Shown here: one piece after another, positions 11,978 to 57,240 of the stretch
Numbering within the stretch: position 1 is the stretch's first letter
Layout: the number at the start of each line of letters is the position of its first letter
NCBI GenBank assembly: GCA_026398065.1
Contig: JAPLTR010000271.1
Coordinates: forward strand, 1 to 57,429
DNA length: 57,429 bases
Direction of reading: 5' to 3'
Origin: Verrucomicrobiota bacterium
GTDB lineage: Bacteria > Verrucomicrobiota > Verrucomicrobiia > Opitutales > Opitutaceae
Position numbers and translations under genes: made by a program
Notes under the pieces: generated by a model
Told to the model about the DNA's origin: nothing
What the model saw: only the letters and a program-made list of their open reading frames with translations
Database searches by the model: none

Positions 11978-11998
11978 AACATCCCCGCACACACACAC

Positions 11999-14214: not shown

Positions 14215-16576
14215 GTGCTCTCCGACCTCCGCTTCGCTTTCCGCCAGCTCGCCAAGTCCCCCGGCTTCACCGTCGTCGCCGTCGTCGCCCTGGCCCTGGG
14301 CGTCGCCACCGCGACGACGATGTTCACGTTCTACAACGCGCTCGTCGTCCGGCCGATCCCGTTTCTCCTCCGTCCCCGATTTTAACGACATCCGGCGCAC
14401 GTCGCAGACCCTCGCCAACGCCCTCACGTCTTGGAACCGCACCTACATCCTCGGCACCGGCGAACGCCCGGAGCGCGCCCTCGGCTCCTGGATCACCGCC
14501 GATGCGTTTCAGACCCTCGGCGTCCAGCCCCACCTCGGCCGCCTCTTCCGTCCCGACGAGAGCAAACCCGGCTCCCCGCCCGTCGCGATCCTCAGCTATG
14601 CGCTCTGGAAGCGCTCGTACGGCGGATCGCCCGAGATCCTGAACCAGACCGTCACGCTCAACAACGCCCCGGTCACCGTCGTCGGCGTGATGCCCGAGGG
14701 CTTTGCCTTTCCCGAGCTTTCCCAGCTCTGGCAGCCCTTCCCCGACGACCAGCAGTCGTCCGAAAACGACCGCGGCTCCCACGGCTGGCCGATGTACGCG
14801 CGCATGAAGCCCGGCGTCACGATCGACCAGGTGCAGGCCGAGCTCGACACCCTCGCCGTCCGCCTCGAACAGGACCACCCGAAGACCAACAGCGGCCTGC
14901 GCTTCCGCGCGCTGCTCGTCCACGAGGAGGCCGTGCGCGACGAAAAGCTCGCCCTCCGGCTCATGATGGGCGCGGTCATCGCCGTCCTCCTCATCGCCTG
15001 CGGCAACGTCGCCAACCTCCTCCTCGCGCGCGCCGCCAGCCGCACGCGCGAGATCGCCATCCGCGCCGCCCTCGGCGCCGGCCGGCTCCGGCTCTTCGGC
15101 CAGCTCCTCACCGAGAGCCTCCTGCTCGGGCTGTGCGGCGGCGTCGCCGGGCTCATGCTCACGTTCTGGCAGATCGACTTCGTCCTGGGTTTCATCCCGA
15201 TCGAGATCCCGTTTTGGATCCGCTTCGACCTCGACTGGCGCGTGCTCACCTTCGCGCTCGTCGCCACCCTCGGGTCGAGCCTGCTCTTCGGCCTCGTCCC
15301 CGCGCTCCAGCTCTCCCGCCCCGACCTCGCCCATGAGCTCAAGGACGGCGCCCGCGGCGGCACCGGCTCCGGCCGCTCCCGCCGCTTCCGCAGCTACCTC
15401 GTCGTCGCCCAGCTCGCGCTCACCCTCGTCCTCCTCGTCGTCGCCGGCCTGATGACCCGCAGTTTCCTCCACCTGCAAAACACCGATCCCGGCCTCGATC
15501 CCCGCGGCGTCTTCACCTTCCGCACCGGCATCCCGCAGACCATCGAGCGGGACGAAAAGGTCTGCGCCAAATTCTTCGCGACCGCCGAACAGCGCCTGCG
15601 CGAGATCCCCGGCGTCGAGCAGGCCGGCTTCATCAGCTACCTCCCGGTCGCCAACAACTCCAACTACCACGGCTTCACCCTCGAGGGCCGCCCCGAGGCC
15701 CCGCCCGGCCAGAATCCCCACGCGCTCTTCCGCGTCGCCACACCCGGCGTCTTCCCGGCGCTGCGCATCCCCCTGCGGCGCGGCCGGCTCTTCGATGAAC
15801 GCGACCGCGCCGACAGCCCGCCCGTCGCCCTCGTCAGCGAAGCCTTCGTCCGCCAGCATTTCGCCTCCGAGGATCCCCTCGGGCGCCGCCTCTCCCTCGA
15901 GGAGCAGAAGGACGGCGAGCCGAAACGTTACGCCACCATCGTCGGCGTCCTCGGCGACATCGTCCAGCGCCCCACGGCCAAGGAACCCGAGCCATCCATC
16001 TGGATGGCGGCCGCCCAGAAACCCGAGTATTTCATGAACGCCGTCATGCGGGTGCAGGGCGATCCGGCCTCCTACCAACAGGCCGCCAAGGACGCCGTGG
16101 TCGCCGCCCGCGCCGGCATCCCCCTCTACAATCCCGCTCCGCTGACCAAGATCGCGAGCGACGCGATGTGGTCCCAGCGGTTCTTCGGCGGACTCTTCGT
16201 GGGCTTCGCCGGTGTCGCCCTCTTCCTCGCCGCCCTCGGCATCTACGGGGTCATGGCCTACTCCGTCTCCCAGCGCACCCAGGAGATCGGCGTCCGCATG
16301 GCGCTCGGCGCCGAGCCCGGGGTCGTCGTGCTCATGATCCTGAAGCAGGGACTCCTGCTCGTCGCCATCGGTCTCGCCCTTGGTTTCATCGGCGCCTGGA
16401 TCACCGCCCAGTTCCTCGCGAGCCTCCTCCACGGCATCGAACCCCACGATCCGCCCACGTTCGGCTGGGTAACTGTGATCCTGATCGGCGTGGCCTGGGT
16501 GGCCTGCTGGCTTCCGGCGCGACGGGCCGGCGCGCTGAGCAGCCGCTGGCGTTCGCGCGGCGTCAGCCGGCCATGA
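14215..16576 (+). pseudogene. ADOP-type duplicated FtsX permease, paralogue 1: 5' deletion/frameshift and non-canonical 3' end
   Basis: GTG 14215 gives the family N-terminus (M)LSDLRFAFRQLAKSPGFTVVAVVALALGVATATTMF...RPIPF, then a TAA at ~14384. The family sequence resumes in the +1 frame at ~14366 (SVPDFNDIRRTSQTL...), with roughly 20-25 residues missing. The C-terminus ends LPARRAGALSSRWRSRGVSRP instead of the family ending RRAxRVDPMxALRxE. Confidence 0.7.
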
Positions 16577-16619
16577 AAGGCAAACGCCTGCGCGCTGCCT
16601 GTGTAGGTCCACATCGCCG

Positions 16620-16832
16620 TCAGAGCCCTGCGGCCGACAACTCGCGGTCCGTGCGTTCAAAATCCGCCCGCGAAAATTTCCTCCCTGCGTCCATCTCGCG
16701 CATGAGCATGCTCACGCGTGACCGTCGCGCCGCCGCTTGCGGCTCCGCCTGCTCGCGCAAAAACTCCGCGAGCTCCAGTTTTTCAGCCGCAGTCAGTGCC
16801 TCGGCCGCTTTCTTCATTTCGGCGAGCGACAT
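16620..16832 (-). CDS. Small antitoxin-like protein (addiction-module-component-like), orphan
   Basis: 70 aa: MSLAEMKKAAEALTAAEKLELAEFLREQ...EMDAGRKFSRADFERTDRELS. It resembles the short helical 'putative addiction module component' antitoxins. It lies antisense inside the permease operon, and no intact toxin gene follows. Confidence 0.35.
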   Translation of the reverse strand: MSLAEMKKAAEALTAAEKLELAEFLREQAEPQAAARRSRVSMLMREMDAGRKFSRADFERTDRELSAAGL

Positions 16833-16912
16833 GCTGTCACCATAGCCGCCCACCCCTCTTCGTCAATCCACCACCCCCTCGCCGCGCGTTGCCCGTTGCT
16901 CGCTCCGTCCCC

Positions 16913-19266
16913 GTGCCCGACCTCCGCCACGCCTTCCGCTCCCTCGCCCGCACCCCCGGCTTCACCGTCGTGGCGGCGCTGACGCTCGCGCTCGGCATCG
17001 GGGCCTCCACCGCGATCTTCTCCGTCGTCCACGCCCTGCTCCTCTCGCCCCTCCGCTACGGCGATGCCCGCCCCCTGGTCCAGCTCCGCTCCTCGCACCC
17101 CCAGCAGGGCTTCGCCGGTCTCGCCCCCGCCACGGTCATGGAGATCGCGACCACCGCGCAATCCTTCGAGACCGTCGCGGCGCAGACTTACTACTACTAC
17201 AACCTCACCAAGATCGGCACCGCCGCCCGCATCACCGGCCTCCAGGCCACCGCCGACTATTTCAAACTCTGGCAGGTGGCCCCGCTCCTCGGCCGCACGT
17301 GGAACGCCGACGATTGCCGTGCCGCCAGCCCGCCCGTCGTCGTCCTCTCCGAACAGATCTGGCGCAAATACTACGCCGCCAACCCCGGGATCCTCGACCA
17401 GCCCATCACCATCGACGACGTCGCCGTGACCGTCATCGGCATCATGCCCGCGTCCTTCCAGGATCCATGGGGCAACGGCGGGCTCTGGCGTCCGATCGCG
17501 ACGGACGGCGACGCTCCGCGCGACCGCAGCTCCCGCTACTGGAGCCCGTTCGCGCGGCTCAGGCCCGGCGTCACCCTCGCGCAGGCCAACGCCGAGCTCG
17601 CCACCCTGGCCGCCCGTCTCAGTGAGACGTATCCGGAAAACTATCGCGGCTGGACGCTCGTCACGGGCGACCTCCAGCGCGCCGTCGTCGGCGACTACCG
17701 CACCGGCCTACTCGTCATCCTCGGCGCCGTCGGCTGCGTCATGCTCATCACCTGCACCAACGTCGCCGGCCTCAACGTCGTGCGCGCCGCGGCCCGCCGC
17801 AAGGAGCTCGCCGTGCGCATCGCCCTCGGCGCGTCCCGCGGCCAGCTCCTCGGCGAACTCCTCGCCGAGAGCCTGCTCCTCGCCCTGATCGGCGGCGTCG
17901 GCGGCGTGCTGCTCGGCAGCTGGGGCATCGACGCCCTCCTCGCCACCCTCCCCGGTGGCGGCGGCATCCCTCGCGCCGACGAGATCGCCCTCAACGGCCC
18001 CGTGCTGGCCGCCGCCCTCCTCCTCACCCTCGTCACCGGTCTCGTCTTCGGCCTCGCCCCGGGCTTCACCGCCGCGCGCGTCGACGCCAACGACGCGCTC
18101 AAGGCCACCGCCCGCTCCTCCGCCCATCCCGCCGTGCGGCGGGTCCGCTCCATCCTCGTCGTCACCGAGATCGCCCTCGACGTCTTCCGAGACGACGACA
18201 CCGGTGAGATGCCAGCCGTGTGCTTTCCCTGACCGTCTCCCTCTCCGACCAACGCTACAAGACCCCCGCGCAGCGCCTCGATTTCTACCACCGCGCCCTC
18301 ACCGAAGTGGCCGCCGTGCCCGGCGTCGCCGCCGCGGGCTTCACCAACACGTCGCCCTTCCGCTGGGGCATTCCCGTCACTCTCGTCCCGGTCGGCCGCG
18401 ACGGCACGGTCGCCGAGGCCAATGTCCCACAGACCTACTACGACTCCGTCAGCGCCGACTACTTCCGCGCGGCGGGCATTCCGCTGCTGTCCGGCCGGCT
18501 CTTCGACGCTTCGGACCGGGCCGGCGCCAAGCCCACGGTCATCCTCAGCGAGACCACCGCCCGCCGCCTTTTCGACACCGCCGATCCGGTCGGTCGCGAG
18601 GTCGCCAGCGCCGCCAACCCCGCCTCGCGTTTCGAGGTCGTCGGCGTCGTCGGCGACGTCCGTCGCCTGGGCCTCTCCAGCACGCCGCCGCCCCAGGCCT
18701 ATCGCTCGCTCGACCAGCGCCCCACCGCCTTCGCCACGCTCATGGTGCGCACCACGCTTCCGCCCAACACCCTCGCCAAGTCCGTGACCGCCGCCCTCGC
18801 CCACGTCGATCCCGACACGCCCATTTCCGAGGTGTCCGCCATGGACGCGGTGGTCAGCCGCACGGTCACCCAGCCCCGGCTCTACGTGATCCTCTTCACG
18901 GTCTTCGCCCTGCTCGCCCTGCTCCTCGCCGCCATCGGCCTGTACGGCCTGGTCGCCTACAGCATCGCGCAGCGCACGCGCGAATTCGGCATCCGCGCCG
19001 CCCTCGGCGCCAGCCCCCGCGAGGTCCGCACCCTCGTCCTGCGCGAGGGCCTCCTCCTCGTCGGCGTCGGCCTCGCCCTCGGTTTCGTCGGCGCCCTGGT
19101 CGCCACGCGCTTCCTCGCGGAAATGATCACCGACACCTCCGTGCACGACCCGGTCGTCTTCGTCGTGGTCCCGCTCGTCCTCGCCGCCACCGCCCTCGCC
19201 GCCTGCCTCATCCCCGCCCGCCGCGCGATGCGCGTCGATCCGTCCGTCGCCCTGCGGACGGAGTAG
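16913..19266 (+). pseudogene. ADOP-type permease, paralogue 2: internal deletion/frameshift removing the first TM helix of the second FtsX half
   Basis: GTG 16913 gives (M)PDLRHAFRSLARTPGFTVVAALTLALGIGASTAIFS. The frame ends at 18232 after ...ILVVTEIAL-DVFRDDDTGEMPAVCFP*. The family sequence resumes in another frame from ~18208 (DASRVLSLTVSLSDQRY...) and runs to the canonical end RRAMRVDPSVALRTE*. About 24 conserved residues (ALVLLxGAGLLxRSF..VDPGF) are absent. Confidence 0.7.
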
Positions 19267-19305
19267 CGCGCAGTCTCAAACCACCTCTCACGGCTCGCTC
19301 GCCGC

Positions 19306-19340
19306 CTACTCGCTACTCACTACCCGCTACTCGCTACTTT
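19306..19340 (+). repeat. 5 x 7-bp tandem repeat leader (CTACTCG CTACTCA CTACCCG CTACTCG CTACTTT)
   Basis: Read directly. It is followed by CTCCCC and ATG 19347. Confidence 0.9.
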
Positions 19341-19346
19341 CTCCCC

Positions 19347-21764
19347 ATGTCCGACCTCCGCTCCGCTTTCCGTACCCTGCGAAAGACCCCCGTCCTCTCG
19401 CTCGTCATCATCCTGTCGCTCGCCGCCGGCATCGGCGCCAACACCACCATCTTCAGCTGGCTCAACAGCGCCGTCTTCCACCCGCTCCCCGGCGTCACCA
19501 CCGATCTGATCGCCCTTGAGGCCCGCAACGCCGCCGGCACCTATCCCGGCACCTCGTGGCTCGAATACCGCGATCTCGTGGAACGCCTGCCCTCGTTCTC
19601 CGGCCTCGCCGCCCAGCGTCCGCGCACCTTCTACCTCGGCGACAACGAGCGCGGCGAACGCCTCTGGGGCGAATTCGTCTCCGGCAATTTCTTCGAGGTC
19701 CTCGGCGTGCATCCCGCCCGCGGCCGGTTCTTCCGCCCCGACGAGGCCACAAACCCCGGCGGCGCGCCCGTCGCCGTTATCTCCGATAATTTCTGGCGCC
19801 GTCATTTCTCCGGCTCGGCCGAGGCCATCGGCCAGACCATCAAGCTCAACAACCGTCCGCTCACCGTCATCGGCATCGCCCCGCCCGGCTTCGCGGGCGC
19901 GTTCAACGCCCTCGGCTTCGACGTGTGGATCCCGCTCACGATGTCGTCCGAGCTCATGCCCGCGAGCCGTGAGCTCACCGACCGCGACACCCGCGCCTAC
20001 ATCCTCCTCGGCACGCTCAAGCCCGGCGTCTCCCGCGCCCGGGCCGAGGGTGAGGTCGCCGCCGCCGCCCGCTCCCTCGCCGCCGAACACCCCGGCACCA
20101 ACGACGGCATCCGCTACGAACTCCTGCCGCTCTGGCGCACCCCGCGGGGCGGCGCGATCCTCAGCGGCGCGCTCGCCACCCTCCAGTTGTTCGCCGTCCT
20201 CATCCTCGTCATCGTCTGCGTCAACACCGCCAACCTCCTCCTCGCCCGCGCCTCCGTCCGTCGCCGCGAGATGGGCATTCGCCTCGCCATCGGCGCCGGT
20301 GCCGGCCGCATCATCCGGCAACTCCTCACGGAGAGCGTCCTCCTCGCCCTCCTGGGCTCCGCCCTCGGCCTGCTCCTGGCCCTCTGGGGCGTCGACGCCA
20401 TCCGCCACATCCCCGTCCCGACCAACATGCCCGTGCGTCTCGGGGCCGAACTCGACTGGCGCGGCCTGCTCTTCGCCGTCGGCACCGGAGCCGCCAGCGG
20501 CCTGCTCTTCGGTCTCGCCCCCGCCCTCCAGCTCGCGCGCTCGGATGTGCAGCACGCCCTCCGCGGCGGGCGCGGGACGCTCTCCGGCCGCAGCCGTCTC
20601 CGCGATTTCCTCGTCGGCACCGAGGTCGCCGTCGCCCTGGTCATCCTCGTGCTCGCCGGGCTCTTCCTGAAGAGCTTCCGCAACGCCCAGACCGTGGACG
20701 CCGGCTACTCGGCCGACCGCGTCCTCCTCGCGTCCGTCGATCTCGTCGGCCGAGGCTACAGCCGGGCCACAATGCGCACCTTTCTCCGCGACGCCCAGGC
20801 CCGCCTCGAACAGATTCCTGGTGTTGAGCGCGCCGCCGCCGCCAACACCCTGCCACTCGATGTCCGCGGCGCGCCGAAATCCGCGCTCACCATCGATGGC
20901 GCTCCACGCACGCCCGGCGACACCGCCCAGGTTCTCTTCTACACCGTCACCCCCGGCTACTTCGCGACCATGGGCATCCACGTGGTCAATGGCACCGACC
21001 TCGCACCCCTGGATCAGGAGAAACGCACGCCGGACGCCGTCATCAGCGAGGAAATGGCGCGCCGCTTCTGGCCCGGTGTCTCGCCCCTCGGCCATCATTT
21101 CCGCCTCAGCGAGCAGGACGACGACTACGAGGTCGTCGGAGTCGCCCGGGAGAGCAAATACGAGAGCCTCGCCGAGCGCCCGCAGGCCGCCGTGTGGCTC
21201 ACCGCCCGCACGGGCGCGATCTTCACCCCCGTACTCCACGTCCGCGCCCGCAGCGGCGACCCGCTCGCGCTGCTCACCCCGATGCGCGCCGCCCTGCGCA
21301 CCCTCGATCCCGAGCTCGCGCTCTACGATGGCCGCACGCTCGCCCAACATATCGACAACAACCTCTTCCTCCAGCGCGTCCCCGCGCAGATGCTCAGCCT
21401 CCTCGCGCCTCTCGCCCTCCTGCTCGCCGCCATCGGCCTCTACGCCGTCCTGGCCTACACGGTCGCCCAGCGCACCCAGGAGATCGGCGTCCGCCTCACG
21501 CTCGGCGCCACACCCGCCTCCGTCGTCGGCCTGATCGTGCGCGAGGGCATGCAGGTCGTCCTGTTCGGCGCCGCCGCCGGCTGGCTCGTCGCACTCGCCC
21601 TCGGCTACACCTTCTCCACCCGGTTCGTCGGCGTCTCTCTCGGCGACCCGGTCATCTACGGCGGCATCCCCCTCCTCCTCCTCGCCGTCGCCGCCCTCGC
21701 CTGCTGGTTCCCCGCCCGCCGCGCCGCCCGCGTCGACCCGATGATCGCGCTGCGTGCAGAGTAG
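19347..21764 (+). CDS. ADOP-type duplicated FtsX/MacB permease, paralogue 3 (intact)
   Basis: 805 aa from ATG 19347. MSDLRSAFRTLRKTPVLSLVIILSLAAGIGANTTIFS... Two FtsX-type 4-TM modules, each with a large periplasmic domain. Ends RRAARVDPMIALRAE*. Confidence 0.88.
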   Translation: MSDLRSAFRTLRKTPVLSLVIILSLAAGIGANTTIFSWLNSAVFHPLPGVTTDLIALEARNAAGTYPGTSWLEYRDLVERLPSFSGLAAQRPRTFYLGDNERGERLWGEFVSGNFFEVLGVHPARGRFFRPDEATNPGGAPVAVISDNFWRRHFSGSAEAIGQTIKLNNRPLTVIGIAPPGFAGAFNALGFDVWIPLTMSSELMPASRELTDRDTRAYILLGTLKPGVSRARAEGEVAAAARSLAAEHPGTNDGIRYELLPLWRTPRGGAILSGALATLQLFAVLILVIVCVNTANLLLARASVRRREMGIRLAIGAGAGRIIRQLLTESVLLALLGSALGLLLALWGVDAIRHIPVPTNMPVRLGAELDWRGLLFAVGTGAASGLLFGLAPALQLARSDVQHALRGGRGTLSGRSRLRDFLVGTEVAVALVILVLAGLFLKSFRNAQTVDAGYSADRVLLASVDLVGRGYSRATMRTFLRDAQARLEQIPGVERAAAANTLPLDVRGAPKSALTIDGAPRTPGDTAQVLFYTVTPGYFATMGIHVVNGTDLAPLDQEKRTPDAVISEEMARRFWPGVSPLGHHFRLSEQDDDYEVVGVARESKYESLAERPQAAVWLTARTGAIFTPVLHVRARSGDPLALLTPMRAALRTLDPELALYDGRTLAQHIDNNLFLQRVPAQMLSLLAPLALLLAAIGLYAVLAYTVAQRTQEIGVRLTLGATPASVVGLIVREGMQVVLFGAAAGWLVALALGYTFSTRFVGVSLGDPVIYGGIPLLLLAVAALACWFPARRAARVDPMIALRAE

Positions 21765-21860
21765 TTTTTGCCACGGATTGCACGCCCTAAGGGACTTCCT
21801 CGCTCCGCTCGATCTCCACTGTGCCGCGAAGATTTGCTCATCTGATGGGCGCAGCTCAGA

Positions 21861-22193
21861 TTGGCCGCCTTGAAATCCAGCCTGTCCCGCCCCGACCCCG
21901 ACTTCCCCGCCTTTGTCAGCGAGCAGCTCGCCGCGATCCCCGCGCTCAAGAGCCGCCCGATGTTCGGCGCGCACGGCCTCTATTCCGGCGACACTTTCTT
22001 CGGGATCGTCTGGCGCGGCTCGCTCTATTTCCGGACCTCTCCCTCCACCGTCGCCGACTACGATGCCGCGAATGCCAGCTGGTTTCAGCCCAACCCCCAG
22101 CAGGCCCTGAAAACCTACCGCGAAGTCCCCGCCTCCGTCCTCGCCCGTCCGGCCTCGCTCCTCGCGTGGGCCCAACGCGCCATCGCCTGCTGA
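21861..22193 (+). CDS. TfoX N-terminal-domain protein
   Basis: 110 aa with a TTG start. RPMFGAHGLYSGDTFFGIVWRGSLYFRTS... matches the TfoX_N pattern (MFGG.GLY..G..F......LY.K). Confidence 0.6.
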   Translation: MAALKSSLSRPDPDFPAFVSEQLAAIPALKSRPMFGAHGLYSGDTFFGIVWRGSLYFRTSPSTVADYDAANASWFQPNPQQALKTYREVPASVLARPASLLAWAQRAIAC

Positions 22194-22250
22194 CGTCGCC
22201 CGCGCGCTTTGACGCCTTCGCGGCCCCCAAACCGGTTCACCCCGCAGTCG

Positions 22251-22379
22251 TCCCATTTCTGGGATGACGACGTTCCATCGTCGGACGCGCCGGCGCGCCC
22301 GTCCCGGCTTGGCTAAATTTTTAAGCGTTGCCCCGCCGGGCTTTGCCGCGCGACCCCGCCCCCGGGCACGCCCTCTGCA
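22251..22379 (+). promoter_or_regulatory. Sigma54 promoter module P3 (upstream of permease paralogue 4)
   Basis: GGGCACgccctCTGCA at 22364-22379 has GG-N10-GC spacing. The palindrome TCCCAtttcTGGGA at 22251-22264 lies 100 nt upstream of the GG. AAATTTTT at 22315-22322 sits about 50 nt upstream of the GG. Confidence 0.7.
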
Positions 22380-22489
22380 AACTCCCCCGCGCCGACTCCG
22401 CGCTTACCCAATTTCGCGGATTCCGGTTTTCGTTTTACCACCATTCCGTCCCTCGCCGCTCGCACCGCCACGCCCTCCCGCTCCCTCCG

Positions 22490-25012
22490 ATGCTCCTCGA
22501 AACCTTCCTCCAAGACCTCCGCCTCGGCGTCCGCGTGCTCATCAAGGAAAAGAGCTTCTGCGCCCTCGCCGTCGCCGTCCTCGCCCTCGGCATCTGCGCG
22601 GTCACCACCCAGTTCAGCGTCGTCAACGGCGTCATGCTCCGCGGCTTCTCGTTTCCCAACGCCGACCGCCTGATGAGTGTGCAGTTCATCGATCCCGCGC
22701 CCGCCCAGCCAAACCAGTTCGGCAACAACACCCAGGTCTTCGCCCTCGACTACCAGGAGATCGCCGCCAGCCAGAAATCCTTCGACCTCGTGGCCGCCTA
22801 CATCAACGGCTCCACCGTCAACCTCACCTACGAGGGCAAGCCCGAGCGCTACACCGGCGCCTACGTCACGGAAAACTTCTTCAAGATTCTCGGCGTCACC
22901 CCGGCCCGCGGCCGCGACTTCACCGCCGCCGACAACCGGCCCGGCGCCGAGAAGACCGCCCTCATCTCCCACGAGCTCTGGCAGGCCAATTTCGGCGGCG
23001 CCCCCGACATCGTCGGCAAATCTGTCCGCCTCAACGGCCGCGCCGCCGTGATCATCGGCGTGATGCCCCCGGGCTTCGCGTTCCCCGTCAACGAGCAGCT
23101 CTGGATCCCTCTCTTCACCGAGTTCCCGCCCAAGCCCCGCAACGAGCGTAATGCCCAGGGCAATACCCCCGCCGTCATCGGCCTGCTCCGCCCCGGCGTC
23201 AGCGTCGAACAGGCCAACAGCGAGATCTCCACGTTCGCCACGCGCCTCGCGCAGGACTTCCCCGACAGCAACAAGCAGTTCAGCGTCGGCCTCGTCCAGC
23301 CGCTCATCCGCACCTTCACCCCCGTCCAGATCCGGGGCCTCCTGCTCTCGATGCTCGGGGTCTGCGTCGCCGTCCTCTTCCTCGCCTGCTCGAACGTCAT
23401 GAACATGCAGTTCGCGCGCGCCACCCTCCGGGCCAAGGAGCTCGCCATCCGCTCCTCCCTCGGCGCGACCCGCTGGCGCCTCGTCCGCCAGATGCTCACC
23501 GAGAGCCTCCTCCTCGCCACCATCGGCGGCGTGGTCGGCGTCATCCTGGCCTACAAGGCCACCGACTTCCTCCAGGCCACCGTCAAGAACCTCCCCAACC
23601 CCATCCCGTCCTACATCACCTTCGACATCGATGGCCGCGTCCTCGCGCTCATCGTCGCCATCACGATGCTCGCCGCCATCGTCTCCGGCGTCGTCCCCGC
23701 CTGGCTGGCCTCGCACGCCAACCCCAACGACGCCCTCAAGGAGGGCGGCCGCGGCAACACCTCCCGCGCCATCAACTTCATCACGCGCGGCCTCGTCGTG
23801 TTCCAGATTTTCCTCACCTGCATCATCCTCATCGCCTCGTTCCTCCAGTTTCAGTCCATCCTCCGCCAGCAGAAGCTCGAGTACGGCTACAACACCACCG
23901 CCCTCGTCTCCGCCCGCATGGGGCTCATGGACGGCGACTACCCGACCGGCGACGCCCGCCGCCTCTTCTACGACCGCCTGCTCCGCGAGCTCCGCGCCTC
24001 CCCCGAGGTCGAGGCCGCCGCCCTCACCAGCCGCTTCCGCATGACCTTCGCCGGCAACGGCCCGATCGAGATCGAGGGCCGCGAGTACAAGGAGAACCGC
24101 GACCGCCCCAACGCCAACTTCGAGAACGTCACCGACGGCTACTTCGCCACGCTCGGTCAGAAGCTCCTCGAGGGCCGCGATTTCACGGCCGACGACACCG
24201 ACCTCCGGCAGCCCGTCGCCGTCGTGAATGCCTTCTTCGCCAAGAAATATTTTGGCACCGGGAGCGCCCTCGGCCGCCGCTTCCGCACCGTCGGCAACAA
24301 CGGCCAGCTCTTCGGAGCGTGGCGCACTATCGTCGGCGTCGTCTCCGATGTTCGGATGCTCGGCCCGTTCAACAATCCCAATGTCGACGCCGCCGGCTTC
24401 TACGTGCCGCTGTACTCGACCGTCTTCGGCCCCGCCGCCGCCCCCGTCGGCCAGCAGTTCACCACTGTCCTCGTCAAACCCCGTGGCGTCCCCGCCGCCA
24501 CCTTCGCCAACAACCTCCGCCGCCTCACCCAGCGCGCCGACGCCAATCTCCCGCTCTACTTCGTCGGCACCCCCGCCGAGAACATCGACAGCTTCCTCGG
24601 CCAGAACCGCGTGCTCGCCGCGATGTTCAGCACCTTCGGCGTCGTCGCGATGATTCTCGCCGCCGTCGGCCTCTACGGCGTCACCAGCTTCTCCGTCAAT
24701 CAGCGCACGTCGGAATTCGGCATCCGCATGGCCCTCGGCGCCGACCAGACCAACATCCTCGTCATGGTCCTCCGTCAGGGCTCCGTGCAGCTTGCCCTCG
24801 GCCTTGTCTTCGGCCTCGGCCTCGCCCTGCTCATCGCGATCCTCGGCGCCGAGGCCATCGGCAATGCCCTTTCCAACATGATCAGCCCGAGCGACCCGCT
24901 CACGTACCTCGCCGTCGCCGTCCTCCTCTCGGTCGTCTCCTTCGTCGCCACGCTCATCCCCGCCCGCCGCGCCACCCGCGTCGACCCCATGATCGCGCTC
25001 CGGGCGGAGTAG
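22490..25012 (+). CDS. ADOP-type permease, paralogue 4 (intact)
   Basis: 840 aa from ATG 22490. MLLETFLQDLRLGVRVLIKEKSFCALAVAVLALGICAVTTQFS... Ends RRATRVDPMIALRAE*. Confidence 0.88.
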   Translation: MLLETFLQDLRLGVRVLIKEKSFCALAVAVLALGICAVTTQFSVVNGVMLRGFSFPNADRLMSVQFIDPAPAQPNQFGNNTQVFALDYQEIAASQKSFDLVAAYINGSTVNLTYEGKPERYTGAYVTENFFKILGVTPARGRDFTAADNRPGAEKTALISHELWQANFGGAPDIVGKSVRLNGRAAVIIGVMPPGFAFPVNEQLWIPLFTEFPPKPRNERNAQGNTPAVIGLLRPGVSVEQANSEISTFATRLAQDFPDSNKQFSVGLVQPLIRTFTPVQIRGLLLSMLGVCVAVLFLACSNVMNMQFARATLRAKELAIRSSLGATRWRLVRQMLTESLLLATIGGVVGVILAYKATDFLQATVKNLPNPIPSYITFDIDGRVLALIVAITMLAAIVSGVVPAWLASHANPNDALKEGGRGNTSRAINFITRGLVVFQIFLTCIILIASFLQFQSILRQQKLEYGYNTTALVSARMGLMDGDYPTGDARRLFYDRLLRELRASPEVEAAALTSRFRMTFAGNGPIEIEGREYKENRDRPNANFENVTDGYFATLGQKLLEGRDFTADDTDLRQPVAVVNAFFAKKYFGTGSALGRRFRTVGNNGQLFGAWRTIVGVVSDVRMLGPFNNPNVDAAGFYVPLYSTVFGPAAAPVGQQFTTVLVKPRGVPAATFANNLRRLTQRADANLPLYFVGTPAENIDSFLGQNRVLAAMFSTFGVVAMILAAVGLYGVTSFSVNQRTSEFGIRMALGADQTNILVMVLRQGSVQLALGLVFGLGLALLIAILGAEAIGNALSNMISPSDPLTYLAVAVLLSVVSFVATLIPARRATRVDPMIALRAE

Positions 25013-25072: not shown

Positions 25073-25128
25073 CACCATTCGTCATTCCCCTCCAATCGAA
25101 AATCGAGAATCCAAAATCGAAAATTCCC
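25073..25128 (+). repeat. 8 x 7-bp phased leader: CACCATT CGTCATT CCCCTCC AATCGAA AATCGAG AATCCAA AATCGAA AATTCCC
   Basis: Read directly. The A/T-rich 35-bp part (25094-25128) recurs at 27647-27680 with one mismatch. Confidence 0.9.
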
Positions 25129-25141
25129 CCCGCCGGCCCTC

Positions 25142-27568
25142 ATGTTTCACGCCCTCAAAACCGCCGTCCGCCAGCTCACCAAGACCCCCGGCTTCACCGC
25201 CATCGCCGTCCTCACGATGGCCGTCGCCATCGGCGCGTGCACCGCCCTCTTCAGCGTTCTCCAAGCCGTCGTCCTCCGCCCGCTGCCGTATCCGAATCCC
25301 GATACGCTCGTCAGCCTCTGGGCCATCAACCCCGAACGCAGCCTTCAGGCCCCCGCTCTGTCCTGGGCGAAGTTTGAGGCCTATCGCACCCGCACCGATG
25401 TCTTCGCCGACATCAGCATGTCCGCCGGCAACGGCTTCACTCTCACCGAGGGCAAGGGCGATCCCGAACAAGTCTTCGGCACCCATGCCTCCGCCAACTT
25501 CCTGCCCATCCTCGGGCTCCAGCCGCTGCGCGGCCGCCAGTTCACCGCCGAGGAGGACAAAGAGGGCGGCCCCTCGGTCGTGATGATCAGCGCGCGCCTC
25601 TGGAAGACCCGCTTCGGCTCCGACCCCGCCATCGTCGGCCGCGTGCTCCAGATTGACGGCGTCGCCCGTGAAGTCGTGGCCGTCCTGCCCGAAAAGATCC
25701 CCGTCCCGTTCAACAACGTCGACATCCTCGTTCCCCGGCCGCTCGAGCTTCCCTACCTCACCCCCCAGCAGCGCGCCAACGCCATCGTTCATCAGGCCAT
25801 CGCCCGTCTCGCCCCCGGCGTCACCCTCGAGCAGGCCAATCTCCGCATCAGGGAGATGGCCGCGCAGTTCAAGGCCGCCAACGCCAACACCCTCGACGCC
25901 GCCAACGCCAACGAGGTCCGCACCATCTCCCAGCAGGTCCTCGGCAACCTCACCCGCACCTTCTGGACACTCGCCGGCGCCGTCGCCGCCGTCCTCCTGA
26001 TCGCCTGCGCCAACATCGCCAATCTCTTCCTTGCCCGCGTCAGCGCCCGGCAGAAGGAAATCGCCGTGCGCCTGTCGCTCGGCGCGCAGCGCGGCGCCGT
26101 GATCCGCCAGTTTCTCGCCGAGAGCACCGTCTTCTCCGTCGTCGCCGGCGGCCTCGGCGTGATGCTCGCCTGGTGGAGCCTCCGCGGCATCCAGCTCCTC
26201 GCCGGCCAGCAGATCCCCCGCGCCGAGGAGATCGGCCTCGACCCCGTCGTCCTCGCGTTTTCCCTCGTGGTCGCCCTCCTCTCCGGACTCCTCATCGGCC
26301 TCTACCCCGCGTTGCAGGCCTCGCGCACCGATGTGCAGACCGTCCTCAAGGACTCCTCCCGCGGGGCCGGCGGCGGCACGGCCGCCAAGGCGTTCCGCCA
26401 CACGCTCGTCGTCCTCCAGGTCGCCGTGTCGCTCGTCCTCCTCATCTCCGCCGGCCTGCTCGTGCGCAGCTTCCACAAGCTGCAGACCGCGGAGCTGGGC
26501 TTCGCCGCCGCCGGTCGCGCCTACGGCATCGTCAACCTCCCGAGCACGCGCTACGCGAAACCCGAGGCCTCCCGCGAATTCTTCCGCCGGCTGCAGGAGC
26601 GCCTCTCCGCCGCCCCGGAGCTCGCCTCCGGCGCCGCCATCAACGGCCTCCCCCTCACCGGCCAGGGCTTCCTCTCGCCCTACGGCGTGCAGGGCCGAGC
26701 GCTCCCGCCCATCCATGAGCGCCCGCTCGCCAATATCCGCACGCTCACCCCCGCGTACTTCGCCACCCTCGACATCAAGCTGCTCTCCGGCCGCTTCTTC
26801 ACCGAGCAGGACCGCTTCGGTGGCGAGAGTGTCGCCATCATCAACGAGACCCTCGCGAAAAAACTGTTCCCCAACGACTCGCCCCTCGACCACGCCTTCG
26901 TCACCGGCCCCAACAGCGACCTCATCACCCGCATCGTCGGCGTCATCCGCGACGTGAAGTCCGCCGGCCTCGCCGTCCCGCCGCCCGACGAGATCTACTA
27001 CCCGCGCGACCAGCGGGGCGGCGCCTTCATGTGTGTCGTCGCGCAGGCCCGGCCCGGCCTCGCCGCCAGCGCCGTCATCCCCGTGCTCCGCCGCCTCCTC
27101 GCCGAGCTCGATCCCACCGTCGCCCTCGCCCTTCCGCAGACGATGGAACAGCTCGTGAGCCAGTCCATCGGCGTGCAGCGCGTCACCATGGCCCTCCTCA
27201 TCTGCTTCGCCGCCATCGCCGCGCTCCTCGCCGCCGTGGGCGTGTATTCGGTGATGGCCTACAGCGTCGCCCAGCGCACCGGCGAGATAGGCGTGCGCAT
27301 GGCCCTCGGCGCAAGCCATGCCGACATCCTCCGTCTCGTCCTCCGCAGCGGCGCCACCCAGGTCGGCCTCGGTCTGGCCCTCGGCCTCGGCGGCGCCCTT
27401 GCCGCGAGCCAGCTCCTCGCCCAGTTCCTCTACGAGGTCAGGCCCTTCGACCCGCTCGTCTTCGCCTCCCTTGCCGCCGCCTTCGCCCTCATCGCCACCC
27501 TCGCCTGCCTCATCCCCGCGAGACGCGCCACCCGCGTCGACCCCATGGTCGCCCTGCGGACGGAGTGA
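25142..27568 (+). CDS. ADOP-type permease, paralogue 5 (intact)
   Basis: 808 aa. MFHALKTAVRQLTKTPGFTAIAVLTMAVAIGACTALFS...RPLPYPNPDTLV... Ends RRATRVDPMVALRTE*. Confidence 0.9.
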   Translation: MFHALKTAVRQLTKTPGFTAIAVLTMAVAIGACTALFSVLQAVVLRPLPYPNPDTLVSLWAINPERSLQAPALSWAKFEAYRTRTDVFADISMSAGNGFTLTEGKGDPEQVFGTHASANFLPILGLQPLRGRQFTAEEDKEGGPSVVMISARLWKTRFGSDPAIVGRVLQIDGVAREVVAVLPEKIPVPFNNVDILVPRPLELPYLTPQQRANAIVHQAIARLAPGVTLEQANLRIREMAAQFKAANANTLDAANANEVRTISQQVLGNLTRTFWTLAGAVAAVLLIACANIANLFLARVSARQKEIAVRLSLGAQRGAVIRQFLAESTVFSVVAGGLGVMLAWWSLRGIQLLAGQQIPRAEEIGLDPVVLAFSLVVALLSGLLIGLYPALQASRTDVQTVLKDSSRGAGGGTAAKAFRHTLVVLQVAVSLVLLISAGLLVRSFHKLQTAELGFAAAGRAYGIVNLPSTRYAKPEASREFFRRLQERLSAAPELASGAAINGLPLTGQGFLSPYGVQGRALPPIHERPLANIRTLTPAYFATLDIKLLSGRFFTEQDRFGGESVAIINETLAKKLFPNDSPLDHAFVTGPNSDLITRIVGVIRDVKSAGLAVPPPDEIYYPRDQRGGAFMCVVAQARPGLAASAVIPVLRRLLAELDPTVALALPQTMEQLVSQSIGVQRVTMALLICFAAIAALLAAVGVYSVMAYSVAQRTGEIGVRMALGASHADILRLVLRSGATQVGLGLALGLGGALAASQLLAQFLYEVRPFDPLVFASLAAAFALIATLACLIPARRATRVDPMVALRTE

Positions 27569-27646: not shown

Positions 27647-27680
27647 AATCGAAAATCGAGAATCCCAAATCGAAAATTCC
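27647..27680 (+). repeat. A/T-rich heptad element AATCGAA AATCGAG AATCCCA AATCGAA AATTCC abutting the ATG
   Basis: 33/34 identical to 25094-25127. Directly precedes ATG 27681. Confidence 0.9.
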
Positions 27681-30095
27681 ATGTCTCTCCTCCGCCACGG
27701 CCTCACCTCCCTCCGCCGCGCCCCGCTCCTTGCGCTCACCATCGTCGCGACCCTGGGCGTCGCCCTCGCCGCGACCGTCATCGTCTTTTCGTTTCTCAAC
27801 TCCTTCCTCCTTCGACCCCTCCCCTACGGCGACGGCTCGCGTCTCGTGGTCGTGTATGAGCACTCCCTCGTCGGCGGACGCGACAACTCCACCCGCGTCA
27901 CCTACGGCAATGTCGTGGCCCTCCACGAACGCGCCACCGCCTTCTCGCGCAGCGGCATCTTCCGCAACGAGTCCGCCACCTTCCGCGGCGCCGATTCCAG
28001 CGAGACCGCCTTCGTCCAGCGCGTCACCGCCGAGATCTTTCCGATGATGGGCGCGCGCGCCGCCCTCGGCTCCGTGATCACGCCCGCGAACATCCAGACC
28101 GGCGGCCTCCGCGCCCTCGTGCTGTCCGATTCGCTCTGGCGCCGCCGCTTCGGCGCCGATCCCACCATCGTCGGTCGCACCATCCAGCTCGACCAAACCT
28201 CGTTCCAAGTCGTCGGCGTCATGCCGGCCGACTTCGTCGTGCCCACCGGCGACGACAGCCCCCAGGCCTGGGCCGCCCTCCTCCGCTCCGACTACGATCC
28301 CGCCGAGCGCACCCAGCGCCGCCACCACTTCTGGGGCGAACTCGCCCCCGGACGCAGCCTCGTCTCCGCCGAGGCCGAACTCGCCACCCTCGCCGCCCAG
28401 CTCCGCCGCGAGTTCCCCCGGGAAAACGCCGACCGCGGCCTCCGCGTCGTCTCGCTCCGCGACGACCTGCTCGGCAACTTCGGCCGCCAGTTGTTCCTCC
28501 TGCAGGGCGCCGTGCTGCTCGTGCTGACCGTCGCCTGTTTCAACTGCCTCTGCCTGCTGATCGCCCGCGCGATTCAACGCCGCCGGGAGTTCGCCGTGCG
28601 CCTCGCCCTCGGCGCCTCGGTGCGCCACCTCCTCGCGCAGCTCTTCGCCGAGTCGCTCTGGCTCGCCGTCCCCGCCGCGGCCCTCGCGTGCGGGCTCGCC
28701 GCGCTCGCCCTGCCCTTCGGCGTCTCCCTCCTCCCGCCGCTCGGCCCGCTGCCGGCCCCGCAGGTCGATGCCACCGTGATCGCCGCCGTATCGCTGGCCG
28801 CGGTCGGCCTCGCCGCCATCTTCAGCGCCGTCCCGCTGCTGCAGGCCCGCCGCCTCAATCTCGAGGCCACGCTCCGCGAGGGCGGCCGCACCGCCGGCTC
28901 GCGCGGCTCCGCCCGCGCCGCCCGCTTCCTCGCCGCCGGCCAGATCGCCGTCGCCCTCGCCCTCCTCATCTGCGGCGCGCTCCTGGTCCGCAGCCAGGAC
29001 GCGCTCCAGCGCGTGGATGTCGGCCTGCCCATTGCCGAGTTCGACCAGTTCCGCATCGGTCTCCGCGGCGACGCCTACACGGCCAGTCCCGCCCGCCGCG
29101 TCCAGTTCTTCGAGCGCCTCCGCGAAAACCTCCTCACGATTCCTGGTGTCCGCGACGTCGGGGTGGCGAGCTTCCTCTTCTCCCGCCCACCCGGCGGCTA
29201 CACCGGCTTCGTGCAGGAGGGCGACGGTCTCCAACTCTCCGATACGCCCAAGCGCGCCCTCCCCAACTACGTCCTCCCCTCCACGCTCAACGCCCTCGGC
29301 TTCCGCCTGCTCGATGGCCGCCTCCTCGCCGACACCGACGACGCCAGCCATCCGCCGGTCGCCGTGATCAGCGCCTCTGTCGCCGCCAAATACTGGCCCG
29401 GCCAGTCGCCGCTGGGGAAACGCGTCCGGCTCGACGTCCCCCGCGTCACCGCCTGGGCCGAGGTCGTCGGCGTCGTCTCCGATGTGATCGGCACCGGCGC
29501 CGAGCCGCGCGTGGTCGACACGTTTTATCTCACCATCGCGCAATGGACCCCGCCCGGCCTCGGCATGGGCTTCATCGTCCGCCACAGTGGCACCGCGCCC
29601 GACGAGCGCCAGCTGCAGCGCGCCGTCGCACAGATCGATCCCGCCATGCAGCTCTTCGCCCATCTCTCGCCCTCGGCGATCTATGCCCGCAGTCTCTGGC
29701 AGGTGGGCTTTGTCACGAAACTCGTCGGCGCCTTCGCCCTCATCGCCGTCGCTCTCTCGCTCGCCGGCATCTACGCCGTCAACTCCTTCTTCGTCGCCCG
29801 CCGCATCAACGAATTCGGCATCCGCGCCGCCCTCGGCGCCACGCGCCTTGACCTCCTCCAGCTCGTCCTCCGCGACAGCCTGCGCCTCACCGTCGCCGGC
29901 CTCGCCGCCGGCGCGCTCCTGGCCTTCGCCGCCAGCCGCGGTCTCACCAACCTCCTCTACAACGTCCCCGCCCTCGACCTCCTCGTTTACACGGCCGCCG
30001 CCCTCGCCATGACCCTCGCCTGCGCCGGCGCCACCCTCCTCCCCGCCCGCCGCGCCGCGAAAGCCGACCCCCTCACCGCCCTCCGCGCGGAATGA
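27681..30095 (+). CDS. ADOP-type permease, paralogue 6 (intact)
   Basis: 804 aa from ATG 27681. MSLLRHGLTSLRRAPLLALTIVATLGVALAATVIVFS...RPLPYGDGSRLV... Ends RRAAKADPLTALRAE*. Confidence 0.88.
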   Translation: MSLLRHGLTSLRRAPLLALTIVATLGVALAATVIVFSFLNSFLLRPLPYGDGSRLVVVYEHSLVGGRDNSTRVTYGNVVALHERATAFSRSGIFRNESATFRGADSSETAFVQRVTAEIFPMMGARAALGSVITPANIQTGGLRALVLSDSLWRRRFGADPTIVGRTIQLDQTSFQVVGVMPADFVVPTGDDSPQAWAALLRSDYDPAERTQRRHHFWGELAPGRSLVSAEAELATLAAQLRREFPRENADRGLRVVSLRDDLLGNFGRQLFLLQGAVLLVLTVACFNCLCLLIARAIQRRREFAVRLALGASVRHLLAQLFAESLWLAVPAAALACGLAALALPFGVSLLPPLGPLPAPQVDATVIAAVSLAAVGLAAIFSAVPLLQARRLNLEATLREGGRTAGSRGSARAARFLAAGQIAVALALLICGALLVRSQDALQRVDVGLPIAEFDQFRIGLRGDAYTASPARRVQFFERLRENLLTIPGVRDVGVASFLFSRPPGGYTGFVQEGDGLQLSDTPKRALPNYVLPSTLNALGFRLLDGRLLADTDDASHPPVAVISASVAAKYWPGQSPLGKRVRLDVPRVTAWAEVVGVVSDVIGTGAEPRVVDTFYLTIAQWTPPGLGMGFIVRHSGTAPDERQLQRAVAQIDPAMQLFAHLSPSAIYARSLWQVGFVTKLVGAFALIAVALSLAGIYAVNSFFVARRINEFGIRAALGATRLDLLQLVLRDSLRLTVAGLAAGALLAFAASRGLTNLLYNVPALDLLVYTAAALAMTLACAGATLLPARRAAKADPLTALRAE

Positions 30096-30144: not shown

Positions 30145-30186
30145 CGTCCTTCGTCACTAGCCATTAGGCATTGGTCATTCGTCATT
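30145..30186 (+). repeat. 6 x 7-bp tandem repeat (CGTCCTT CGTCACT AGCCATT AGGCATT GGTCATT CGTCATT)
   Basis: Read directly. Followed by CCCC, 42 nt before ATG 30229. Confidence 0.9.
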
Positions 30187-30228
30187 CCCCGGTAACCTTT
30201 CCCTTCCCGGCGAGTTTTCGGTTGCGCC

Positions 30229-32641
30229 ATGCTTGCCGATCTCAAGTTCGCCCTCCGCCAGCTCGCGAAATCCCCCGGCTTCACCGCCGTCGCCGTCCTC
30301 TCCCTCGCCCTCGGCATCGGGGCCAACACCGCCGTCTTCAGCCTGATGAAGGCCGTCCTGCTCGAAATGCTGCCAGTCAGGGCCCCGCAGGAACTCGTCA
30401 TCTTCAACTGGCTCGCCGAGGAAAACGTCGGCCCTCAGTCCTCCAGCGGCTGGAGCACCACGGAGCCCGGTTCCAACCAGCGCACCAGCACGTCGTTTTC
30501 CCTCGCCACCTTCGAGGCGTTTCAAAAACAGCCCGGTCCCCTCTCCGCCGTCTTCGCTTTCGCCCCCACCGGTGGATTCAACGTGATCGTCGATGGTACC
30601 GCCGAGATCGCGGGCGGCTGTCAGGTTGCTTCCGGCGGCTATCATCTCGGACTCGGCGTCACGGCCGCCGCCGGCCGCCTTTTCACCCCCGCCGACGACC
30701 TTCCTTCGGCCGAGCCCGTCGCCGTGATTTCGTACCGCTACTGGCAGCGCCGTTTCGGTGGCGACCCGGCCGCCATCGGAAAATCCATCACGGTCAACGG
30801 CGTCCCCACCATCCTGATCGGCGTCACCTCTCCCTCGTTCAACGGCACGATGCAGGTCGGCGAAGTCACCGACATCACGATCCCCCTCGCCCACGAGACC
30901 CGCCTCAGCCGTTCTCCCTACGACAACCGCAAGCCCGGCTATTGGTGGGTCCGCATCATGGGCCGGATGTCCCCCGGCGCCACGCTCGCCCAGGCCCGCG
31001 GCGCCCTGGAGGGCGTCTTTCACGAAACCGCGCGCGGCAACGTCAGCGCGAGCACCTGCCCGGCGCGCCCGCCGTCGACCCCGCCACGATTCCCCTGCCT
31101 CAGCTCCGCGCCGAGCCCGGCGGCCAGGGTCTCTACGAGGCGCGGCGCAACTACGAGCAGTCGCTGCGGCTCCTCCAGGGCGTCGTCGCCCTCGTCCTGC
31201 TCGTCGCCTGCGCCAACGTCGCCAATCTGGCCTCGTGTTCTCCCTCTGGGGGGCGCGGGCCCTCCTTGCCCTGAAGCCGTTTGGCTCCGGCACGCTCGAT
31301 CTCGACACCTCCCTCGACTGGCGCGTGCTGGGCTTCACCTCCGCCATCGCGCTCGCGACCGGCATTGTCTTCGGCCTCGCCCCCGCCCTCCGCGCCACGC
31401 GCCTGAACCTCACCGCCGAGTTCCAGGGCGGCGCGCGCACCCTCGGCGCCGGCTCGCGCTCCGCCCTCGCGAAATCCCTGATGGTCGTCCAGGTCGCCCT
31501 CTCCCTCGTGCTGCTCGTCGGCGCCGGGCTGTTCGTCCGCACGCTGCGCAACCTCCAAAACGTCGATGTCGGTTTCAACCGAGAGCAGTTGCTGCTGTTT
31601 CAGATCAACGCCGCCGCCAACGGCGCCACCGGCCCGCAGTCCCTCGCCCTTTACGAGCGCATGCGCACCCGCTTCACCACCCTGCCGGGCGTCAACCGCG
31701 TCTCGTTCGGCCGCATGCCGACGCTCAGCCAGAACAACTGGACCTCCGGCGTCATGGTGCCCGGCTACGTCCAGACCGAACGCTACGACAGCATCCGCCT
31801 GAACGGCGCCGGCCCCGACTACCTCGCCACCCTCGGAATCCCGCTGCTGCGCGGTCGCGATTTCACCGACCGCGATGTCCACGGCGCGCCCAAGGTCGCG
31901 ATCGTCAACCAGGCCTTCGCCAAAAAATACCTGGGCTCGGAGGAGGAGGTCATCGGCCGCCGCTTCTCCACCGACCGCAAGGCCACGACGCCCGACATCG
32001 AGATCGTCGGCCTGATGCGTGACGCGCAGTATTCCCATGTGAAGACGCCCCCGCCGGCCGTCGCGTTCTTTCCCTACGCCCAGCTCAATCCGGACAACGC
32101 CGGCATGGGTCATTTCATCCTGCGCTATCAGGGTGGCGAGGCCGCGCTCATCACCGCCCTCCGCGCCGCCGCGCGCGAGATCGACGCCACGCTCCCCATC
32201 ACCAACATCCGCACCCAGCAGGAACAGCTCGACCGGCTCTTCACCCAAGAGCGGCTTTTCGCGACCCTGTGCAGCCTCTTCGGCGGCCTGGCCCTCGTCC
32301 TCTCCGCCATCGGTCTGTACGGCCTCATGTCCTACGCCGTCCACCGCCGCACCGGTGAAATCGGCCTGCGCATGGCGCTCGGCGCGCTCCCACAAAACGT
32401 GCTCTCCATGGTCGTCCGCGAATCCCTCGTCCTCGTGCTCGTCGGCGTGGCGGTCGGCGTCGCCGCCTCGCTGGGTGCAACGCGCACCATCGCCAGCCTC
32501 CTCTTCGGCCTCTCCGGCACCGACCCGCTCACCTACGGTCTCGTCGCCCTCGGCCTGATCGCCGTCGCGCTCTTCGCCGCCCTGCTCCCGGCCCGCCGCG
32601 CCAGCCGCATCGATCCGATGCAGGCGCTGCGCACCGAGTAG
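30229..32641 (+). pseudogene. ADOP-type permease, paralogue 7: one frameshift plus an internal deletion
   Basis: ATG 30229 gives MLADLKFALRQLAKSPGFTAVAVLSLALGIGANTAVFS. The family sequence shifts frame at ~31040-31052 (..GVFHETARGN / ..EHLPGAPAVDPATIPLPQLRAEPGGQGLYEARRNYEQSLRLL..ACANVANL). It shifts again at ~31229-31240, resuming at VFSLWGARALLALKPFG. About 45 conserved residues (LLARA..REIAVRLALGA..TESLLLA..) are absent. The canonical end RRASRIDPMQALRTE* is present. Confidence 0.7.

Positions 32642-56577: not shown

Positions 56578-57240
<663 letters not shown>

Follow-up and report, generated by a model that had tools for sequence, protein, structure and literature searches.

A predicted sigma-54 promoter module ahead of an ADOP-type permease array in a member of the Opitutaceae, and its occurrence in other Verrucomicrobiota

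The window considered here (the whole 57,429-nt stretch of contig JAPLTR010000271.1, from a member of the Opitutaceae in the phylum Verrucomicrobiota) contains an array of genes for duplicated MacB/FtsX-type permeases, accompanied by genes for a HlyD-type adaptor, two ABC ATPases and a two-component regulatory pair, and by four tripartite modules of near-identical geometry, P1 to P4 (Table 1). Our concern is mainly with P3, which lies between a TfoX_N-domain gene and perm4.

Table 1. Modules, promoter elements and genes of the window
Feature	Position	Strand	Remarks
Module P1 (GTCCCAATCCCGGGA ... TGGCACGCGCATTGCA)	5686–5816	+	sister of P3
92-aa secreted-type protein	5846–6124	+	P1 gene
NtrC-family response regulator	6193–7560	+	P1 gene; REC + sigma-54 AAA+ + Fis-type HTH (HTH_8)
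Histidine kinase	7677–9026	+	P1 gene
Module P2	11848–11980	+	sister of P3
HlyD-type adaptor	11999–13252	+	P2 gene
ABC ATPase	13445–14146	+	P2 gene; MacB/LolD-like
perm1–perm3	14215–21764	+	P2 genes; duplicated MacB_PCD–FtsX permeases
TfoX_N-domain gene, 110 aa	21861–22193	+	PF04993, E = 1.7e-21; junction of P2 unit and P3
AACCGGTT palindrome	22230–22237		12–14 nt upstream of site 1
Candidate activator site 1, inverted repeat GTCCCA-TTTC-TGGGA	22250–22264		start of module P3; centre about −133
Candidate activator site 2, degenerate repeat GTTCCA-TCGT-CGGAC	22272–22286		centre about −111
AT-rich element TAAATTTTTAAG	22314–22325		11 of 12 bases A/T, spacer 69% G+C; centre about −70
Sigma-54 −24/−12 element GGGCACGCCCTCTGCAAAC	22364–22382	+	GG 22365–66, GC 22377–78
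Predicted 5′ leader, about 100 nt	22390–22489	+	C/U-rich; start codon and conserved structure not found
perm4	22490–25012	+	first gene of P3 unit; ADOP-family duplicated MacB/FtsX-type permease
perm5	25142–27568	+	P3 unit
perm6	27681–30095	+	P3 unit
perm7	30229–32641	+	P3 unit; reading frame broken near 30996–31304
Period-7 repeat spacers	19306–19338, 25094–25124, 27647–27677, 30145–30187		
Module P4	56071–56200	+	sister of P3
88-aa secreted-type protein	56228–56494	+	P4 gene
Second ABC ATPase	about 56581–57240	+	P4 gene

The product of perm4 scores 760.6 bits against the ADOP model TIGR03434 (cut-off 622.3; profile positions 1–803), and the doubled MacB_PCD–FtsX architecture is visible in the precomputed Pfam hits of its orthologues. 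Its start at the ATG at 22490 was placed with reference to 119 homologues (64–85% identity, 100% query coverage, mostly 835–848 aa), and the names of the nearest of these agree with a place in the Opitutaceae. Like perm4, perm5 and perm6 are intact. Frame changes mean that perm1, perm2 and perm7 are not single ORFs (at 14364–14378, 18184–18460 and 30996–31304, respectively), and perm2 and perm7 also contain stretches that do not align with their intact paralogues; these three could be either pseudogenes or the result of assembly indels. The spacer between perm1 and perm2 is unusually long (336 nt) and contains a minus-strand ORF of 77 aa (16620–16853), for which Pfam and NCBIfam gave no match and none of the loci fetched has a homologue; should it prove to be genuine, the P2 unit is interrupted. 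No other sigma-54 module was found in the remaining permease spacers of the window, heptamer repeats being found there instead. Four of the internal spacers carry such period-7 tandem repeats immediately upstream of the next start codon (units CTACTCG, 4.7 copies; AATCGAA, 4.4 copies, on two occasions; and CGTCATT, 6.1 copies), and have a G+C content of 52–62%, compared with 68% overall. Other 7- or 8-nt units occupy the same place in loci L045 (7880–7990), L046 (8075–8110) and L002 (9925–9975), and in the leader of L038.

Several other features of the neighbourhood deserve mention. The 92-aa and 88-aa proteins encoded first behind P1 and P4 have signal peptides and belong to no known family, and small secreted proteins like them follow the module in about 10 other genomes. 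Between the histidine kinase gene and P2 there is a minus-strand gene (9066–11729) whose 887-aa product includes a region weakly similar to kinases (Kdo/Pkinase); several relatives have P2 and the adaptor gene almost immediately after the kinase gene. A DDE_3 transposase gene (35148–36281, minus strand) lies just past the array. Genes perm5 to perm7, and a gene for a 770-aa protein, are present in the window and missing from the syntenic locus L003.

A sequence-only reading of this DNA had described P3 as a sigma-54 module, and its motifs can be read directly from the sequence. The palindrome TCCCATTTCTGGGA is at 22251–22264, as had been noted (with its flanking G it becomes GTCCCATTTCTGGGA, 22250–22264), and AAATTTTT is at 22315–22322; GGGCACGCCCTCTGCAAAC was correctly identified and starts at 22364, but ends at 22382, not 22383. 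The near-identity that had been claimed between the −24/−12 regions of P3 and P2 amounts to 17 of 19 bases (the P2 copy being at 11962–11980), and when the window is searched with the pattern GGGCACGNCCNCTGCAAAC, allowing up to three mismatches, only these two regions match. Within the P3 element, GGGCACGCCCTCTGCA agrees with the sigma-54 consensus at 14 of 16 positions, and the GG and GC doublets are 10 nt apart, which is the correct spacing for TGGCAC-N5-TTGCW; its weighted score of 18.5 out of 20 is the joint second-best in the window. If transcription starts at about 22390, as we predict from these motifs, GG would be at −25/−24 and GC at −13/−12.

Not included in the earlier description were module P4, a degenerate inverted repeat GTTCCATCGTCGGAC at 22272–22286, and the palindrome AACCGGTT. 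The degenerate repeat is centred 22 bp (two helical turns) downstream of the first palindrome, and we treat the two as candidate activator sites 2 and 1, respectively. Their centres, at about −111 and −133, fall in the range of about 80–150 bp usual for activator sites of sigma-54 promoters, and this offset recurs in the four modules of the window and in 41 instances elsewhere. The AT-rich element further downstream is presumed to be a site of DNA bending. As an IHF site it was rejected, with three of the nine specified positions of the Escherichia coli consensus (WATCAANNNNTTR) mismatched; the best matches to this consensus at the other modules have one mismatch (P1 and P4) or two (P2).

The recurrence of this arrangement within the window is far from what chance would provide. 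Searches for GTCCCA-N4-TGGGA with at most one mismatch gave seven strand-hits at four places (0.76 expected), and in all four modules GGCAC-N6-TGC follows 114–116 nt after the palindrome. In P2, P3 and P4, AAATTT lies exactly 50 nt past the palindrome and 43–44 nt ahead of GGCAC. A strict combined pattern (TCCCA-N4-TGGGA, 40–60 nt, AAATTT, 33–53 nt, GGCAC-N6-TGC) matches these same three modules, compared with a mean of 0.00 matches in 100 shuffles. When the four modules are aligned, identity is confined to the motifs and to a block 8–22 nt after the palindrome, which in P3 corresponds to site 2. An in-register comparison of P2 with P3 gives 72% identity over the motif positions and 32% over the remainder, where composition alone predicts 29%. 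This argues for selection on the motifs rather than recent copying, and the idea that P3 is a recent copy of P2 was rejected on these figures.

The comparison was extended to other genomes in two ways: loci with perm4 orthologues were fetched through their proteins and, separately, one genome per species was scanned at the DNA level for the module pattern. Including loci from both sources, the module is found ahead of perm4 orthologues in eight other genomes of Verrucomicrobiota: L001, L002 (=L012), L003 (=L030), L009, L036 and L038, and, in slightly relaxed form, L043 (TGGCAT-N5-CTGCA) and L044 (CGGCAC-N5-ATGCA), these last two having been fetched via the protein and not the pattern. In the resulting nine-genome alignment of perm4-upstream regions, mean column identity is only 44%, yet 28 of the 33 invariant columns fall in site 1 (9 of its 15 columns), site 2 (6 of 15), the AT-rich element (4 of 12) or the −24/−12 element (9 of 19); of the other five, the start codon contributes one and the spacer immediately ahead of −24 contributes four. 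The AACCGGTT palindrome is exact in five of the nine regions and partial (ACCGGT) in two more. It is exclusive to perm4-type modules, occurring at the same offset in L001, L002, L003 and L038, and is absent from P1, P2 and P4 in the four-module alignment; it may be a site for a second factor.

The DNA-level scan (TCCC-N5-TGGGA, 45–65 nt, AAATTT, 38–50 nt, GGCAC-N6-TGC) covered 185,579 species genomes and gave 39 hits, where by our own calculation about five would be expected in random sequence. About 35 of the hits are in Opitutia or other Verrucomicrobiota, counting L020, which is labelled only ‘bacterium’ and has a module nearly identical to that of L011. In 18 loci a HlyD–ABC–permease operon lies downstream of the module; elsewhere the downstream genes are perm4 orthologues, or encode small secreted proteins, with the regulator pair or a second ATPase next in line, or, in a few hits, encode larger secreted proteins. 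In L022 a possible TolC-like gene, as judged from N-terminal sequence only, comes after the module. The module also turns up in Gammaproteobacteria: in Glaciecola petra (L033, 3371–3493) the module precedes a HlyD–ABC–permease operon (33%, 63% and 30% identity), and in a metagenome-assembled genome (L007, 4776–4909) it precedes an ADOP-like permease gene (28% identity).

Some features of these instances are independent of the pattern used to find them. The scan itself fixes TCCC and TGGGA in site 1 and GGCAC and TGC in the −24/−12 element, but not the base just 5′ of TCCC, for which G is the majority, nor the bases flanking the −24/−12 element, which give ..aAa. Site 2 emerges as an ungapped consensus, c.TcCC.c...CG, at a constant offset in 41 instances. 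The gap from site 1 to the AT-rich element, for which 45–65 nt was allowed, is 50 nt in 18 of the 41 and 60 nt in 10; these two preferred values are one helical turn apart, as is predicted for DNA looping with face-of-the-helix constraints.

The sigma-54 reading is thus upheld by the recurring geometry of the module, by the gene in the window for a protein with a Sigma54_activat domain, and by retention of the module in eight other genomes. To judge from its motifs and their conservation, P3 very probably works as a sigma-54 promoter for perm4 to perm7 that depends on an activator. No rpoN candidate is present in the window; Verrucomicrobia often possess RpoN, according to a 2011 survey (PMC3372290).

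Does P3 then divide the permease array into two transcription units, as had been suggested? The first half of that suggestion, that perm4 to perm7 form a unit with its own promoter, is supported by the comparative evidence. In L001, L002, L043 and L044 the perm4-led array and its module stand alone beside unrelated upstream genes, and no adaptor or ATPase gene was found within 8–10 kb upstream or 8–12 kb downstream; with these arrays so far from any adaptor or ATPase gene, the module would be the promoter of an autonomous unit. P3 may look ‘internal’ because in the window two such units are side by side. The second half, that the P2 unit ends before P3, does not follow from the comparison. It is quite possible that P3 is real but supplementary, acting as an internal booster, and that transcripts from P2 continue through perm1–3 and the TfoX_N gene into perm4–7. 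A scan of the plus strand from 21764 to 22490 found no terminator-like hairpin, so an intrinsic terminator between perm3 and P3 was rejected, and the 3′ end of the TfoX_N gene with its flank folds no better than shuffled sequences (z = 1.33), although such a scan sees only canonical intrinsic terminators and is blind to Rho-dependent or non-canonical termination. All the genes have a single orientation, which would permit read-through, and in L045 and L046 a perm4 orthologue lies within an array in which no module was found, so the module is evidently not obligatory and is dispensable in some genomes. On the other hand, the genes at the P3 junction are unrelated in different genomes, as would fit the boundary of a unit: where the window has the TfoX_N gene, L009 has an opposite-strand ORF of 192 aa between the perm3 orthologue and the module, and L003, in which synteny with the window extends to either side, has no gene between the upstream permease and the module, its 237-nt permease–perm4 spacer consisting essentially of the module. 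P3 may thus supplement transcripts that run in from P2, without making a clean division of the array, and such read-through might even be enough for expression.

Which protein might act at P3? The regulator encoded behind P1 has the domains expected of a sigma-54 activator (Sigma54_activat in Pfam, E = 8.6e-62, with the Walker A sequence GENGTGK), and its closest solved structures are NtrC4 (4L4U), NtrC1 (1NY5) and ZraR (1OJL). Its sigma-54 contact loop (residues 230–235) reads GAFTDA, compared with the canonical GAFTGA: F and T are kept, and the fifth residue is D. All of 12 orthologues, the most distant with 58% overall identity, have this version, and the HTH is nearly unchanged as far as Udaeobacter and Puniceicoccaceae. 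None of the NCBIfam equivalog models was matched by the regulator above its cut-off. A P2-type module has the regulator gene, the kinase gene or both directly upstream in at least 12 genomes, which represent three verrucomicrobial lineages and include Puniceicoccaceae (L023) and Udaeobacter (L027 and L041). It is likely, on this evidence of gene neighbourhood, that the regulator is the activator of P3, and the presence of module P1 at its own operon suggests that it is autoregulated.

The repeats might instead be bound by some other sigma-54 activator, or by a repressor, with the neighbouring two-component pair controlling something else. Perm4-type modules have the additional AACCGGTT palindrome, which could point to a second factor, and in the gammaproteobacterial loci L007 and L033 the regulator pair was not found within the 8 kb fetched. 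Nevertheless, we consider this unlikely, in view of the repeated adjacency of the regulator and kinase genes to P2-type modules, the presence of the same module at the regulator–kinase operon itself, and the conservation of the HTH in parallel with that of the site.

Rather less likely still is that the module is a decaying relic that no longer fires, leaving perm4–7 either silent or dependent on P2 for their expression. Such decay would be in keeping with the broken state of three of the seven permease genes of the window (perm1, perm2 and perm7) and with the loss of the module from L045 and L046, but not with the intactness of perm4, perm5 and perm6, nor with motifs that are all intact at P3 and invariant across nine genomes in spite of diverged spacers.

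The leader that would separate P3 from perm4 is about 100 nt long, as had been proposed, if the distance is taken from the predicted start to the perm4 ATG, and the claim that it contains no ORF holds in the strict sense that there is no ATG, GTG or TTG in any frame. The structure prediction that had been recommended for it, when run, gave a fold no better than that of shuffled sequence (−17.9 kcal/mol, shuffle mean −18.5, z = 0.22). Across the window no Rfam family reached its gathering score, and for 22150–22600 the sole hit was at chance level (E = 0.79, minus strand). No column of the leader is invariant among the orthologues, in which its length varies about seven-fold, from about 32 to about 215 nt, and several orthologue leaders consist of 8-nt tandem repeats. 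That the leader is a riboswitch, an attenuator or a small-ORF leader adding P3-specific control could be entertained because leaders are consistently longer in perm4-type modules (43 to about 226 nt, counted between the −12 TGC and the start codon) than in P2-type modules (14–28 nt in nearly all; 45 in L023 and 106 in L033), but the unremarkable fold, the lack of Rfam matches, start codons and invariant columns, and the variable, repeat-built lengths make this highly improbable; we rejected the regulatory RNA interpretation and regard the leader as a variable linker.

Returning to P3 as an activator-dependent promoter, we can envisage the following course of events. The phosphorylated regulator would bind as dimers to the two inverted repeats near −133 and −111, where the dimers would share a face of the helix and could form an oligomer. 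A bend in the DNA at the AT-rich tract near −70, either intrinsic or made by an HU/IHF-like protein, would carry the activator to the closed complex of sigma-54 RNA polymerase at GG (−24) and GC (−12). ATP hydrolysis would then open the complex, transcription beginning near 22390, and in the resulting mRNA the four ADOP ‘orphan’ permease genes would be preceded by about 100 nt of leader that is neither structured nor conserved. P1 (the operon of the activator itself), P2 (adaptor, ATPase and perm1–3) and P4 (the second ATPase) would be driven by this activator too, and the permeases might then be produced alongside the ATPase and adaptor on which they depend.

How does this compare with known systems? 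At the glnAp2 and glnHp2 promoters of enteric bacteria, NtrC, a two-component regulator, acts from two adjacent dimer sites that share a helical face and lie over 100 bp upstream of a GG/GC −24/−12 element; at glnHp2 there is a bend site between enhancer and promoter, and the operon encoding NtrC is under the same control. P3 resembles them in having a response regulator as its probable activator, paired distal sites, a presumed bend element, the −24/−12 core and an apparently autoregulated regulatory operon. It differs in its site (GTCCCA-N4-TGGGA), in its regulator, which scores below the NCBIfam cut-off for NtrC (372.7 vs 558.6 bits), in the genes it would control (exporter parts, compared with nitrogen assimilation for NtrC) and, with respect to glnHp2, in an AT-rich element that misses the E. 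coli IHF consensus. The Pu promoter of the Pseudomonas putida TOL plasmid, which involves XylR, IHF and sigma-54, has a tripartite layout and depends strictly on helical phasing. P3 has the same succession of upstream (candidate) activator sites, central (presumed) bend element and −24/−12 core, and comparable phasing is suggested by the 50- and 60-nt spacings; however, XylR senses its signal directly, whereas the regulator here is a response regulator, and Pu is bent by IHF at a consensus site that is unmatched at P3.

The regulator also resembles AtoC and ZraR, which are among its four best-scoring named families (392.9 and 355.5 bits), have the same domain order and, in the case of ZraR, are represented among its closest solved structures; AtoS and ZraS are among the three best-scoring named families for the kinase. 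These scores are far under the equivalog cut-offs (714 and 760), so the pair are not orthologues of AtoSC or ZraSR, and the target genes and binding sites of AtoSC/atoDAEB and ZraSR/zraP are different from those of the P3 system. On the side of the exporter, the ADOP-type perm4 and the HlyD-type adaptor and MacB/LolD-like ATPase of the P2 operon recall the tripartite exporters of MacAB–TolC type and the ADOP family of duplicated orphan permeases. In MacB, ATPase and permease share one chain, whereas here one ATPase gene precedes many duplicated permeases that are separate from it, and there are more permease arrays in other places. In the literature, we found no account of ADOP or MacB-type permeases being controlled by sigma-54 in Verrucomicrobia. 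P3 itself is an ordinary NtrC/glnAp2-like or Pu-like element, in a control circuit that we did not find described; with that silence, and with every equivalog score of the regulator under its cut-off, the system seems to lie outside any named regulon.

As a single promoter, then, P3 would be an ordinary case of a well-understood mechanism. Its wider significance lies in the company it keeps. In Acidobacteria and Verrucomicrobia, ADOP permeases make up very large families of paralogues; they are called ‘orphan’ because no ATPase gene is adjacent, and the question arises of how they are paired with their partners. The module described here is carried by an adaptor–ATPase operon, by dispersed permease arrays, by a second ATPase gene and by the operon of the regulator itself. 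We suggest, tentatively, that this shared module may tie orphan ADOP permeases to their partners: one sensor, acting through a GAFTDA activator, might co-induce the adaptor–ATPase operon and the dispersed arrays, which could be anywhere in the genome, with the module accompanying each array as a portable, 10-bp-phased cassette across Verrucomicrobiota and possibly in Gammaproteobacteria. A common and highly specific promoter module would give a concrete and testable regulatory answer to the question of how ADOP partners are matched. For a so far uncharacterised regulator of the NtrC family, the analysis also yields a defined candidate motif (GTCCCA-N4-TGGGA, in two sites separated by 22 bp), together with a natural data set in which spacing changes in steps of one helical turn. 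If the suggestion is right, many alternative permeases would be loaded on one ATPase on demand.
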